Shown here: piece after piece, positions 2,461 to 58,715 of the stretch | How positions within the stretch are numbered: the first letter of the stretch is position 1 | Layout of the letters: each line of letters begins with the position of its first letter | Assembly (NCBI GenBank): GCA_951406725.2 | Contig: OX597816.1 | Location: forward strand, 111,290,001-111,354,000 | Reading direction: 5' to 3' | Length of the DNA: 64,000 nucleotides | From: Octopus vulgaris | Taxonomy: Eukaryota | Made by a program: the position numbers and the translations under genes | The notes under the pieces: generated by a model | The model's database searches: none | What the model was told of the DNA's origin: nothing | What the model saw: the letters and a program-made list of their open reading frames with translations, nothing else

Positions 2461-3394
2461 ATTATTATTATCATTATTATTGTTATTATTATTATTATTA
2501 TTATTATTATTATTATTATTATTATTATTATTATTATTATTATTATTATTGTAGAACATTGGCTGAAATATTATAGAGTCGTTACAAAAATGCCATGTGG
2601 TGTTATATTCTGGCCACATATTATAAACAATTAATATTCCAGTAGTCTTATTATTTTGCATGATCTCAGGGAATAATAAGTGCAGTTCTTCGAAATCTTT
2701 GCACATATAACGTAATTGTATTCTTTTTCAAGTAATTTCTTCTATTAAGAGTATTCTAAATAATATATATGTGCAGTACCTCCTGTTGCTAGTATGAGCT
2801 GTTTTGCGTATTTTCATTAGACATAAACTTCTCTGTACCACATTTTTCATTCCCAGTGCATCTCATTATTTTTAATAAGTTTCTGCGGAGATTATTTCCG
2901 TTTTTAGTCCTTTTATTCTGGATAATTCATTTTCATGTCTTTATTCATCGAAATTTTCAACATTTCCTTCGGGAATTGATTAGAAAATTGTCATTATTGG
3001 TCTTTCATAACAATGTATGAGCTAATCTAGTTAAACTAAAATCTCCCCGAATACTTGTTACTATCTTTTCCATTTTTGCCATTCCCTCCCTTACTCTCTC
3101 TCTCTCTCCCTCCTTATTCTCTCTCTATATATATATATAGTTTTTTTTATCTAGTTTCAGCTCATGAGCTGTGGCCATGCTGGGGCACAGAGAGAGAGAG
3201 AGAGAGAGAGAGAGAATAAGGGAGGGAATGTCAAAAATGGAAAAGATAATAACAAGTATTCGGGTAGATTTTAGTTTAACTAATACATATATATATATAT
3301 ATATATATATATATATATATATATATAATATAAAGAAAATGGAGAGTGTGGACACAGAAAATATCATTTTTTAAATATAAGAGTCAATTTCATG

Positions 3395-3486
3395 TCACCT
3401 ACGCACGTTTCAATTCCCACCTTCATTCATATTTTACAATTAAATTTACATTATGAATTTAAAAGGTTAAAATCTCTTCTGGGCAA
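3395..3486 (-). ncRNA. Degenerate type I hammerhead ribozyme in a PLE pseudo-LTR remnant
   Basis: Minus strand: ttgcc CAGAAGA gattttaacctt..aaggtgggaatt GAAAC GTGC GTA ggtga. Stems I and II pair, the core has U4>A, and it lies next to (TA)n. Confidence 0.6.
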
Positions 3487-5435
3487 AATTGACATATATT
3501 CTTATACATACATCTACATCCGAATGGATGGAGAGTTCCTTACATACTGAATGGCAACATGCGTATGCGTGTTTCTGTGTGTCAGCTTGTGTGTCATCGG
3601 ATTTCGATCTCAATATAGATAGAGGCTAAACTAAGACCATAGTGGACAGTGGCTAGCTACAGTCGTTAAGAACTAGGTCATACTACTATTCACCCTTAAT
3701 GGATTTCGATCGGTTTTAGAGGCTTGCTGCTGCTCTTCTTCCAACTCATTTGTCAGAAGAATGAGAATAAAATTATATATATATTAGTAAGTATCCAAAT
3801 CTATATAATTATTTCACTTTTACTCTTTTAATTGTGAGAATTTCCAATTTTCATTATTTATTTTTTTTTACTTAGATGTATTAATCTTATTTGTTGAAAA
3901 TTTCGGTTATATATTTTTGAAATAAATTTTTATGTATTTTTAATGAGAGTACTATTCATTATGTATCACTATGTAACACTATGTATCATTTTCAAATGGT
4001 GTGGGTGCGTTTCACTTTAAGATTTCCTTCCATGTTTATTTTAATCTTATCATTAACGGAGTGTTTATTTAAATATAATTTATTATTTAGATTTATGAAA
4101 TATAAATATATATATATATATATATGTGTGTGTGTGTGTGTGTGTGTGTGTGTGTGTATGCATGTATATATAAATATAAATATATATATATATATATATA
4201 TATAAAGGGAGAATTCACAAAAATCATAAGACGAAGACAGGTGGTGTAGACAACAAACAGATGTATTAGTATAACGCTCGGGAAATATATATATGCAAAT
4301 ATATAGTAAGATAGATATACATAAATACATACATTCATAAATACATACATACAGACATACACACACACATATTCCTTTTCCTATGAATATAATAAGCTCT
4401 CTATCCCTCGTTTATGTAATATAACTGTTAACTTATTTATTTAGATACATAAGCTGATAGTAAAGGTTTCAATATGTATTCCTCCATTTGAGTAATATTA
4501 TAGAATCATTTAATTCTAGATATTGATGTATTCACATAATGCCTATTTAATTATATTTATTTGGATCTATTAGATTTATTTATTTATATTCTCTGTCGTA
4601 TATATATATATATATATATATATATATACACATATTTTGTATTTAGTGTGTCCAGTTTTTGTTTAATTTTCACGTGCACTTTTTATATTGTATTGTGGTA
4701 AAATCTTCGCAAGAAACCATTACAGAGAATTTTAACACGGGCTCCACATGCGCATTTATTTCTTATACACTTTTCTGTTTTCAGTAATGGGAAATATTTG
4801 GCAGAAAATATTTGATCTCGAACCCCAATCAACCCTCTATGTTTTGTTTTATGATGAAAAGCCCTTCCAGATTAACTTTAATATCTGTGATTTCAGTTAG
4901 TATTATGTTTCGTTTATCCGCTTCACTTTTCCTATGTTTTCTATCGTTCGCTTTTAAATGCTCGTTTTTAATTTAGTTTTAATTTAGTTTCGTTTGTATA
5001 AATTTCCTGTTACAGCTTTTTCTTTTTCTATCTCTTGCCCCCGTCTCTGTTTTATATTTTGAAAGTTCCATGTAAGTCGAAGACAATGTTTATTTCGCTT
5101 ATATTTTGTAACAATGTGTTATATTTTCTTTTTATACTTCACTAAGTATATTTGCACTTCGATGCTAGCTATTTTATGATATTTATCATATTGCAGAGGC
5201 CACAATTTTTGTTCGTGTTAAATATATGATTTCTACATGTTGGGTAGTACAGTATAAACTCTGTGATTATTCTCCATTTTCATGGTGTAGTCAGTGGATG
5301 AGGGACAACCCCATGACATTTATGCTGAGGCTCTGATGCTAACGGAAGAAAGAGTGAAAGCTTGACTTGTATTTTCTATAGAATAGATACCATTGAAGAC
5401 ACACACTGTCACAGACAAAGATATTAATTTCAAAT

Positions 5436-5594
5436 TCTGGCACAAGGCCAGCAATTTCAGCGTAGGGGTTAGTCAATTACTTCGACTACAGTACTCAGAT
5501 TTGTATCTATCTTATCGACCTTGAAAAGATGAAAAGTAAAATCGACCTTGGCGGAATTTGAACTCAGACGGACAATTGCCAGCTCACCGCCTTT
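5436..5594 (-). mobile_element. SINE family A (tRNA-derived, Meta-domain-like), degenerate
   Basis: Reverse complement of the 8134 family: atcgaccttggcggaatttgaactcag..gccagctcaccgcctt. Confidence 0.75.
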
Positions 5595-6491
5595 CACAGA
5601 TAAAGATATTAAACCGAGCATGGATTAAGTTAATCAGCCAATAAATAATAAGTAGAGTCCATCCGACACTCCACTTTGCAGTTTGTTTGTCAATTTCAAC
5701 ATGATGTGAGCCCGAATCTATTAAAGGATATATTTGCCCTGTGTACTACGCAGCGAAAGTAATGCAGAATTATGTGATATTTATAAGAAATGCTTAGCCA
5801 CACAGCCATTGTCGCATCCATAACATTCCTTGTCATCTGATAATTCATGTAACTTTATATTCAAAGTTATAATAAATATAATGTATTACTTCAACGGCTA
5901 GGTATGGAAACTATAACTTTTTAGCATTTCTTTTAATGTTAACTATTAGTGCGTCTGTTATATTACTTCATATTCTGTTCGTTATATATATTGTCCTATC
6001 TAATTCCTTGATTACAAAGCATTTGTAAGTCTGACTTCCTTGTAATTTGTCTTGTATCAGGTTTGTTATCTAACATGATATCTCTAGCATTTTATTATTT
6101 TTTTTTACACTCAAGTCAGCGTTGATGCATTTTGCCTAAATTGAATGTCCTGACAATTTCCCTACTGAAATTGTATATCGTACATATCAAGCTATCTACA
6201 TGTCTGTTATCTCAAGCTCACAGGTTTAAGTCATCCATATTCAGTTAGCTGATTGCCATATCCTATTATTTAGTTAGTTATTGTTTTATATCACAATTTG
6301 TGAAGAAAAGCGCTGTTGGTCACAGATTTCAAACTAGCTCACTGCATTCTAAAATTGAGAATGACAAGTGAGCGCTAGTTACTCGGTTTCATTTCATGGA
6401 ACGTCGTTCCCAAAACACCAGTTTTTCAATTGCTCACTGATGTTTACATCAGCATGGAGAAAGAGAGGGAGAGAGAGAAGTAAATCTAAGG

Positions 6492-7048
6492 ATAAGCAAG
6501 TTAGGCAAGTTGATATAAAAAATATTAAATACATTTAATACAAAAAATATAAATATGTTTACATATAAGCAGACCCTACTTACGCAGAATAGAAATATCA
6601 CGAATTAAAGGGGTTGAATTAGAGTTGTACGAATCCAACAGTTGTTTCTGGGGGTTTGGTGGTCCAACATAATGATCGTAAATTATTTTCCCCTCACACT
6701 GTTCTCTATCTAAATACCTCCTAACTCATCCTTCTAATGCATTAGTTCGCCACAAAATCATTTCATCTTTAATCTTACTGTCAACACCTCAAATGTAAAG
6801 CTTCTTAACTTCTTTCCTGAAGACGGAGGCTGGTATTATCTGATGATGGAATCAATTTACAATCATTATTTTGGACCACTGAGCCCCAGAAACAGCTTTT
6901 AGACTCCTAAAACACTTTTTCAGCCTTTAATTCCTGATATCATTTCTATTCTGTGTAAGTCGGGTGCTTTTGTATTTAAAAATATGTACATTTTTTGTAT
7001 TAAATGTATTTAATATTTTTTGCATATCGGGTTGCCTAACTTACTTAT
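6492..7048. mobile_element. Fold-back PLE pseudo-LTR remnant (diverged ~200-bp inverted arms) with degenerate hammerhead
   Basis: 6492-6690 is the reverse complement of 6848-7048. CTGAAGA at 6817 and GAAACAGCT at 6889. Confidence 0.65.
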
Positions 7049-57762: not shown

Positions 57763-57797
57763 ATATATATATATGTGTGTGTGTGTGTGTGTGCGTG

Positions 57798-57981
57798 TAA
57801 TTTAGAGAAAAACCTCTATTAAACAATTCAATAATGAAATATGTTATTCACACCATATAGAAAACATACTATAAAAACCTTATTCTAAAAATCAATGAAT
57901 TACAATAAATATTATTTTCTATATGGTGTGAATAACATCTTTCATTATTGAATTGCTTAATAGAGGTTTTTCTCTAAATTA
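57798..57981. repeat. Inverted repeat, 67-bp arms, 50-nt spacer
   Basis: 57798-57864 vs 57915-57981, two mismatches by eye. Confidence 0.9.
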
Positions 57982-57994
57982 TATACATATACGT

Positions 57995-58391
57995 AGGAGT
58001 GGCTGTGTGGTAAGTAACTTGTGTACCAACCACATGGTTCTGGGTTCAGCCCCACTGCGTGGCAGCTTGGGCAAGTGTCTTCTACTATAGCGTCAGGCCG
58101 ACCAAAGCCTTGTGAGTGGATTTGGTAGATGGAAACTGAAAGAAGCCCGTCGTATATATGTATATGTATATATGTATGTGTGTGTATATGTTTGTGTGTC
58201 TGCGTTTGTCCCCCCAACATCGCTTGACAACCGATGGTGGTGTGTTTACATCCCCGTAACTTAGTGGTTCGGCAAAAGAGACCGATAGAATAAGTACTAG
58301 GCTTACAAAGAATGAGTCCTGGGGTCGATTTGCACGACTAAAAGGCGGTGCTCCAGCATGGCCACAGTCAAATGACAGAAACAAGTAAAAA
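57995..58391 (+). mobile_element. SINE family B
   Basis: Full-length, near-consensus copy. Confidence 0.9.
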
Positions 58392-58583
58392 GTATATACT
58401 ATATATTGTGAAATTTTATTTAAAATTGTTAAATTGAATTTTTCCCTGTAAATTTTGAATTATATTCCCTACTATTATTATTATACATATATATATATAT
58501 ATATATATATATATGTAGGTCCCGGGTTGATTCGGGGTTAACCACAGTAAATAAGGTACTCAATACATAGCAGAGTAAAATTA

Positions 58584-58715
58584 ATTTATTATATAGAAGG
58601 AGCTTCTACAGGACTAGAACTGTTTCATTCAAGAGAAATCTTCAGGAAGCTTCCTGAAGATTTCTCTTGAATGAAACAGTTCTAGTCCTGTAGAAGCTCC
58701 TTCTATATAATAAAT
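58584..58715. repeat. Perfect 132-bp spacer-less palindrome containing two hammerhead ribozymes
   Basis: Axis at AAG|CTT (58649/58650); arms pair base for base out to 58584 and 58715. Confidence 0.95.
58648..58698 (+). ncRNA. Type I hammerhead ribozyme (mirror copy at 58601-58651, minus strand)
   Basis: agcttc CTGAAGA tttc tctt gaat GAAA CAG ttctagtc CTG TA gaagct: intact core, 6-bp stem I, 4-bp stem III. Confidence 0.8.

Follow-up and report, generated by a model that had tools for sequence, protein, structure and literature searches.

Inverted-repeat modules and Penelope-like element ends in a microsatellite-rich stretch of the Octopus vulgaris genome

The stretch of DNA considered here, 64 kb of Octopus vulgaris contig OX597816.1 (positions 111,290,001 to 111,354,000, called the window, to which counts refer unless stated otherwise), is animal DNA rich in microsatellites and short interspersed elements (SINEs). 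A self-search finds in it seven inverted repeats whose arms lie <300 nt apart, and none in each of 20 block shuffles. A first-pass annotation, made from the sequence alone, had reported six of these modules (here M1 to M6), all of which are present; the self-search adds a seventh (39283-39549, here M39). We find with high confidence that the largest, M4, is the 5'-truncated 3' half of a Hydra-like Penelope-like element (PLE) plus its own inverted copy, inside a (TA)n tract, and that M6 follows the same design in miniature. Taken together, the modules form a mixed set, not one system: two are clearly PLE-derived and two probably so, one is uncertain, and two lack any PLE sign.

The modules differ in age, in spacing, and in their contact with microsatellites. 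Arm divergence spans 0 to 21%, which bears out the earlier view that PLE-type modules of different ages are present. At a substitution rate of 0.0036 per site per million years, as quoted in PMC13282606, this divergence corresponds to ~1 (M4), 4 (M5), 8 (M1), 13 (M39), ~23 (M2), and 35 (M3) million years, estimates that are biased if arm conversion or assembly error occurred. Spacer lengths scatter from 0 to 162 nt, and the spacer precision that had been claimed is therefore absent. A module end lies within 10 nt of a (TA)5+ tract in three of the seven modules, and within 10 nt of a TA, ATAC, or TG tract in five, compared with 1.0-1.2% of background positions; the nearest tract is 143 nt away from M2 and 1412 nt away from M39.

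The palindromic insertions M4 and M6

In M4, the 5' ends of two copies are joined at the axis, with the hammerhead motifs facing outward. Comparison with an intact SINE elsewhere in the window identifies the left flank as the 3' half, and the right flank as the 5' half, of one SINE, and the segment 51702-54286 is inserted into the internal (TA)n of that SINE. Because the SINE halves flank this whole segment, the 143-nt extension of one arm belongs to the insert. Could a 2.4-kb palindrome with arms 99.3% identical be an assembly artefact of fold-back long reads? The high identity would fit, but the flanks are in-register, unmirrored halves of one SINE, the arms differ at 10 places, and the arms of the six other modules have diverged by up to 21%; we regard an artefact as extremely improbable. 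Parts of 51000-55000 are contained in 20 of 24 sequencing-run rows, and there is no RNA run among those listed.

The open reading frame (ORF) of the plus-strand copy has 2287 relatives at E<=1e-3 in a HMMER scan, and P0001 (labelled Octopus sinensis) is 45% identical to it. Thirteen relatives of at least 600 amino acids among the matches listed align to it with their C-terminal part; these long relatives carry YRDD (13/13), DKT (10/13), RW[KR] (5/13), a CxC..CP linker (12/13), and CxxC before a conserved E (13/13), and none carries DKG. The M4 copy ends in the thumb of the reverse transcriptase (RT), so the RT domain, including the RWK/DKT region, falls outside it. By inspection, the endonuclease (EN) lacks CCHH, with one Cys in the GIY-YIG core, and has CLLC before E256 and CKH after N. 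The CxCX5C linker between RT and EN is absent; an Asn-rich stretch (53400-53580 (+)) takes its place, as it does in P0001 and P0002. In Pfam, neither the M4 ORF nor any of 10 long relatives gave a match, and a word-index search found no longer relatives among 1555 candidates; the full HMMER scan did find them.

Judged from its sequence, M4 belongs with the EN+ PLEs, since its predicted GIY-YIG-type endonuclease ORF is homologous to RT-bearing PLE proteins. We file it as Hydra-like and not as a strict member of the Hydra clade because the CxCX5C linker is missing. A predicted type I hammerhead motif lies in its 3' pseudo-long terminal repeat (pLTR). The 28-nt spacer is probably the 5'-most part of the longer, tail-bearing minus-strand copy, because the minus frame is open through it and the plus frame has stops; a weak match to P0005 also points to this assignment. 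Elsewhere in the window, 27248-26688 (-) is a second, older Hydra-like PLE ORF remnant (profile i-E ~1e-5), split by a (GA)/(CA) microsatellite.

We conclude with high confidence that M6, together with its tail (58515-58715), is the M4 design cut down to the hammerhead and is a PLE fold-back. Like M4, it lies in (TA)n and shows an inverted 5'-truncated copy with a tail on one end only. It had been noted that in the two youngest modules one arm extends to (TA)n, and so it does: the extension measures 143 nt in M4, that of M6 69 nt; with these extensions included, each module touches TA tracts at both ends (outer ends within 5 nt). The shorter arm of each stops at an internal TA-like site and there joins the target tract. 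The axis of M6 lies within the 5' strand of helix I.

The M6 tail and arms are repeated among the sequencing contigs of all four runs, and the tail is therefore element sequence. Summed contig depth, which is not a copy number, reaches 0.22-0.56 million in the tail bin (58507-58573) and 0.57-1.9 million in the left-arm bin, the latter above the former in all four runs; nearby unique DNA (bin 59043-59100) has 1.5-65. One contig of run X1 joins 58631 to 58670, a weak junction with a 22-nt side that gives a hint of another axis within the M6 family. Among the contigs across 57100-59100, which are mostly SINE, no piece listed bridges the M6 axis or shows an empty site; bin 58708-58774 has no contig cover, and the interval holds a further 2635 joints and 5463 loose ends besides those listed. 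Might M6 be a fixed-structure unit resembling a miniature inverted-repeat transposable element (MITE)? Its asymmetric ends, with a repeated one-sided tail, and the PLE ORF encoded by M4 speak against this, and we consider it highly improbable.

Hammerhead motifs were sought with a minimal type I descriptor requiring an unchanged core, with 30 shuffles as the null. The window gave five matches, the shuffles a mean of 0.4 (maximum 2); three of the five fall within modules (both M6 arms and the left arm of M3), and the others are a solo element end at 57363 and a site at 43079 (-). This last match, in AT-rich surroundings with no adjoining tail or TA tract, is taken as chance, and a match at 53062-53104 was rejected as an artefact of the palindrome. 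A strict scanner that demands a paired first base in helix II matched only the 57363 motif. A relaxed scan adds the M4 motif at 54160-54234 and a solo motif at 3481-3400, each at score 10, and nothing reached 9 in 4 block shuffles; its scores of 6.5-9 overlap the null range. It returned no match at any score in M1, M5, or M39. The M4 motif has helices I-III and one core change, at U4; helices I and II appear in its predicted fold (folding z -1.07). In M2, inspection by eye places the CUGAAGA half within the spacer (at 6817), whereas both arms contain the GAAA half. In all, one module has intact hammerheads, three have variant or decayed ones, and three have none; the first-pass count of four modules with outward hammerheads therefore stands only if two decayed cases are included. 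Three motifs have an unusually long helix II (56-65 nt), at 54160-54234 (+), 3481-3400 (-), and ~6817-6902 (+).

Table 1. Inverted-repeat modules, their parts, and solo PLE-type ends in the window
Feature	Coordinates (strand)	Anatomy	Spacer
M4 whole insertion	51702-54286	3' half and tail on - strand, inverted copy on + strand	
M4 arms	51845-53052 / 53081-54286	99.3% identical; 8 substitutions and 2 one-base indels over 1206 aligned positions	28 nt
M4 tail	51702-51844 (-)	143 nt, one-sided, ends at (TA)n 51663-51701; no TA tract between tail and arm	
M4 spacer	53053-53080 (-)	28 nt, single-copy, at axis	
M4 ORF	53081-53953 (+)	290 open codons; predicted RT thumb end, Asn-rich linker, GIY-YIG-type endonuclease	
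M4 mirror ORF	53052-52179 (-)	frameshift near 52435	
M4 hammerhead	54160-54234 (+)	type I motif, U4-to-C core, 56-nt helix II, palindromic helix III	
M4 mirror hammerhead	51971-51897 (-)	same motif, GAAA also changed	
M6	58584-58715	perfect 132-nt palindrome, arms 100% identical	0 nt
M6 tail	58515-58583 (-)	69 nt, one-sided, ends at (TA)n 58482-58514; repeated in genome	
M6 hammerheads	58654-58692 (+) and 58645-58607 (-)	intact in both arms	
M3	47416-47980	outer arms 78.6% identical	~25 nt (47675-47699)
M3 hammerheads	47519 (-) and 47883 (+)	minimal motif in left arm; decayed in right arm	
M2	6489-7051	arms 85.1% identical	162 nt
M2 hammerhead-like motif	~6817-6902 (+)	decayed, long helix II, spans spacer and right arm; by inspection only	
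M5	57798-57981	67-nt arms, 97.0% identical	50 nt
M1	3028-3282	arms of 94/99 nt, 94.7% identical	62 nt
M39	39276-39557 (core 39283-39549)	arms 91.2% identical; seventh module, absent from the first-pass annotation	17 nt
Solo PLE-type end	3333-3481 (-)	motif 3481-3400, U4-to-A, 63-nt helix II; tail to (TA)n 3283-3332	
Solo PLE-type end	48404-48530 (+)	minimal hammerhead-like motif 48408-48435, A6 changed; tail to (TA)n	
Solo PLE-type end	57359-57505 (+)	intact hammerhead 57363-57397; tail to (TA)n 57506-57554	
Solo PLE-type end	57638-57762 (+)	minimal hammerhead-like motif 57642-57668, GAAA changed; tail to (TA)n	

How the palindromes may have formed

In total, these observations are consistent with a mechanism in which hammerhead-bearing palindromes such as M4, a truncated PLE plus its inverted copy, arise from a first-strand cDNA that stops early, folds back, and primes its own copying, and we consider this origin likely. 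In this model, the endonuclease would nick (TA)n, and reverse transcription would begin close to the RNA's 3' end, in or past the tail. Synthesis would then halt early, and the stopping point would set the arm length (1.2 kb in M4 and 66 nt in M6). The 3' end of the cDNA would anneal to its own strand, so that the looped-out part becomes the spacer (0-162 nt). Back-copying would stop before the tail, at an internal TA-like site, and the new end would join the target (TA)n, leaving one arm longer than the other.

An alternative dispenses with self-priming: two cDNAs, separately primed on both target strands from two start sites, would join at their 3' ends. A purified anole PLE protein is described as cutting and extending both strands and as starting at two tail-delimiting sites on the RNA (PMC11167929), two start sites directly explain a one-sided tail, and the axis of M4 has no clear microhomology. 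However, the arms of M6 are identical, spacerless, and meet at a self-complementary site, the arms of M4 differ by substitution at only 8 of 1206 aligned positions, and in every module the two truncation points lie only 0-162 nt apart, a closeness that independent truncation would not favour. We therefore hold the joining of two cDNAs to be rather unlikely.

Several points weigh against PLE fold-back by self-priming. Joining of two separately primed cDNAs gives the same final structure. Clean axis microhomology is absent in M4, M5, M2, and M39 (4-6/14 positions match), and a self-complementary axis was found only in M6. The tails of M4 and M6 are longer than the published 30-40 bp. For M5, one diverged contig spans the arm-spacer-arm layout, as a fixed unit would. 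No PLE ORF homology to 150 relatives or their profile was found in M2, M3, M5, or M6, a lack that would be expected of copies truncated within the 3' non-coding end; the profile represents one clade only. As to the hammerheads, the complement control of the relaxed scan gave one match at score 10, the M2 motif fails both descriptors, and none of the 107 Rfam matches at E<=1 is to a hammerhead family, all being of microRNA type and falling on hairpins and microsatellites. Predicted folds of eight of the nine motifs are no more stable than those of shuffles, helices I and II being recovered for several.

Do the hammerheads themselves contribute to fold-back? The best reading makes them passengers that travel with the 3' end of the element, because the opposed copies lie on different strands and hammerhead cleavage is reported to be dispensable for insertion in vitro (PMC11167929). 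With two hammerheads on opposite strands, the usual dimer is therefore not expected in one transcript. A non-LTR retrozyme was also considered and rejected: no tandem array overlies any module's hammerhead, and the pairs are inverted, not head-to-tail.

The first-pass proposal of self-primed PLE hairpins has good support in M4 and M6; for M3 and M2 it is plausible and for M5 possible, and for M1 and M39 it lacks support.

Other modules and solo element ends

A PLE origin of M3 and M2 is likely, and we hold it with moderate confidence, based on outward-facing decayed hammerheads and on outward ends that are T-rich, like PLE-type tails. The left end of M3 adjoins (ATAC)n.

M5 is more evenly balanced. 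The modules had been called apparently unrelated, which holds generally, but one M5 arm resembles the tail of the solo end at 57359 (z 6.0, 0/200 shuffles, the top of all segment pairs compared, both sequences being AT-rich); the other arm plus spacer gives z 2.9. The M5 family is repeated, with a summed contig depth of ~3-67 thousand in bins 57770-57970. On this evidence M5 has about an even chance of being a PLE-tail fold-back. The short modules, and M5 above all, could also be fixed non-autonomous hairpin units that move whole: either MITEs that target TA, or derivatives of PLE tails mobilised anew in trans. M5 is repeated, lacks a hammerhead, and is flanked by TA-like sequence, and the first record of run X1 (182 nt, with 20 other letters and 10 gap letters) covers 57823-57991 and with it both arm-spacer junctions. 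The left of these boundaries is crossed by 14-30 contigs per run, and MITEs and Tc1-Mariner elements have been recently active in O. vulgaris (PMC13282606). The likeness of an M5 arm to a hammerhead-bearing solo tail argues against a MITE-like unit, and for M5 alone we place this explanation somewhat short of even.

M1 lacks support for a PLE origin: its spacer consists of (TA)n and a SINE 3' end, it has no hammerhead, and the arms, read outward, are rich in A (TA skew -0.41 and -0.43), whereas all PLE-type tails are T-rich (+0.04 to +0.45). M1, and perhaps M39, may instead be a fold-back duplication of host DNA that arose by repair or insertion at fragile microsatellites. For M1, this would mean that the cDNA of a SINE, cut short, turned back beyond its 3' end and duplicated ~94 nt of flank. 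The spacer, the outward skew, the missing hammerhead, and TA tracts on both sides of 3140-3282 all fit duplication of the flank, and self-annealing inverted duplication of flank has been described at L1 insertions (10.1101/2024.12.14.628481). Against it, no microhomology is visible at the SINE-arm junction, and the described L1 cases duplicate the reciprocal end, not the primer-side flank (10.1101/2024.12.14.628481). We lean toward flank duplication for M1.

M39 shows no PLE sign: it has no hammerhead, no TA tract, and no ORF match. A third copy lies in direct orientation at 39985-40139. The whole of 39276-40139, an inverted and a direct copy with a 430-nt interval before the third copy, has the classic Penelope layout without PLE marks.

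The first-pass annotation also listed solo hammerhead pseudo-LTRs at 3395, 48404, 57359, and 57638. All four motifs are present, but the core is unchanged only in the 57359 copy, which contig depth marks as repeated in the genome; the hammerhead-like motifs at 48408 and 57642 score 6.5, the level of background. Contigs show the 57638 copy to be diverged from its family: letters other than its own account for most of the depth at 57658 and, at 57661, for about half of it or more. The segment 4199-4284 (-) matches the 48404 solo's tail at 83% and carries no hammerhead; it is a further and shorter stump of the 48404 family.

Two of the solo ends belong to a cluster at 57320-58760 in which they, M5, a SINE, a T-rich 82-nt piece (58400-58481), and M6 sit on successive TA tracts. 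The arrangement reads as repeated insertion into SINE-borne microsatellites. Within another SINE, 55662-55745 is a perfect (CA)n-(TA)n-(TG)n palindrome in which even a GA interruption is mirrored; it may be a small fold-back at a TA tract. A weak short palindrome at 24157-24294 (80% over ~65 nt, 5-nt spacer) falls under the threshold of the null test. Decayed fragments of long interspersed element (LINE) type, unrelated to the modules, lie at 21263-21652, 61322-62171, 374-751, and 1784-2185, and Pfam RVT_1 is found in two of them (E 7.6e-6 and 0.0079).

Relation to published systems

O. vulgaris has PLEs in abundance, in 31 families and with recent activity seen as 336 insertions (PMC13282606), and the present finding mostly adds octopus family members to a known pattern. 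The density and spacer precision of the modules had been put forward as undescribed; head-to-head inverted PLE copies, optional tails, the idea of self-priming, opposed hammerheads, and (TA)n targeting are all in print. What is new here is a matter of detail: longer tails, U4-variant hammerheads with a long helix II, and the missing Cys linker of the M4 family. We came across no study, in the literature searched, that surveys the anatomy of arms and spacers in octopus. Nor did that literature yield a U4-variant, long-helix-II PLE hammerhead; Lunse et al. (PMC5785218), outside it, may cover such forms. Of the three long-helix-II motifs, two have U4 changed; the published table available for comparison shows no such forms in its Hydra rows. 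A natural U4C hammerhead variant with lowered activity is mentioned in PMC3088659.

The way in which PLEs make their second strand and the inverted copy is described as still untested (PMC8557442, PMC11167929). A genome with seven such repeats in 64 kb, ~4-5 of them PLE-derived, would offer many natural junctions at which self-priming can be compared with two-template joining. The linker-less M4 family in (TA)n is in itself a small natural test of the hypothesis that the Cys linker directs targeting, and long perfect hairpins, if transcribed, may feed double-stranded RNA pathways. A bolder scenario would unite the modules: an octopus Hydra-like PLE lineage without a Cys linker would still hit (TA)n, carry U4-variant long-helix-II hammerheads and long tails, and fold back readily, spawning mobile hairpin units (M5) and mirroring host flank at a SINE insertion (M1). 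Each young palindrome would in that case preserve the start and the end of both first- and second-strand synthesis, which would amount to a genome-scale readout of the PLE second-strand step. We regard this scenario as speculative and doubtful.

The closest likeness is to the Hydra-clade PLEs of PMC8557442 (Craig 2021), where an inverted 5'-truncated copy, a one-sided tail of 30-40 bp, and a bias to microsatellites are typical of PLEs. The supplement lists Penelope-13_HM, in which an inverted copy lacking its 5' part (nt 1-966) is accompanied by a hammerhead on either strand, and Hydra-1_Obim of Octopus bimaculoides, which inserts at (TA)n; section 11 gives as marks of the clade the RT/EN motifs found in the long relatives of M4. 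Shared with M4 are a C-terminal endonuclease that lacks CCHH and in which CxxC and CxH flank the conserved E and N, insertion at (TA)n, a hammerhead near the 3' end, and protein alignments that look alike by eye. The M6 hammerhead, also by eye, has the 'ctgaagat...tgaa acag...ctgt a' layout of several Hydra rows in the table. The M4 family differs: it lacks the CxCX5C linker, its hammerhead combines a U4-to-C core and a helix II of 56 nt, and its tail is 143 nt long. Four short motifs of the window have no match among the octopus element ends in the available supplement.

In the Penelope elements of Adineta vaga (PMC3846280; Arkhipova 2013), as in the modules, an inverted pLTR stands beside the 5' end, one arm has an optional tail, and targets are AT-rich; as in M4, there are Asn-rich inserts between RT and EN. 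Self-priming was inferred there from junction palindromes and placed on an antisense template, with the mechanism left open. Those elements differ in belonging to the Penelope/Poseidon clade, in their low copy number, in target duplications of 8-10 bp, and in a 31-bp tail. The anole Poseidon element PAc (PMC11167929; Frangieh 2024), of another clade and with a shorter tail, cleaves AT-rich sites and begins reverse transcription at two positions, which accounts for the optional tail.

Cervera and de la Pena (2014; PMC4209133) describe thousands of dispersed single hammerheads from truncated PLEs and dual hammerheads 100-700 bp apart on opposite strands. The metazoan PLE minimal hammerheads of that paper resemble those of the window in their palindromic helix III and in the unpaired base after A9; arm and spacer anatomy, and U4 variants with a 56-65-nt helix II, were not encountered in its available text. 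Lastly, non-LTR retrozymes (10.64898/2026.07.22.740005) are, like the modules, non-coding, carry a type I hammerhead, and derive from PLE pLTRs. They form head-to-tail tandem arrays, however, whereas the modules are single inverted pairs.

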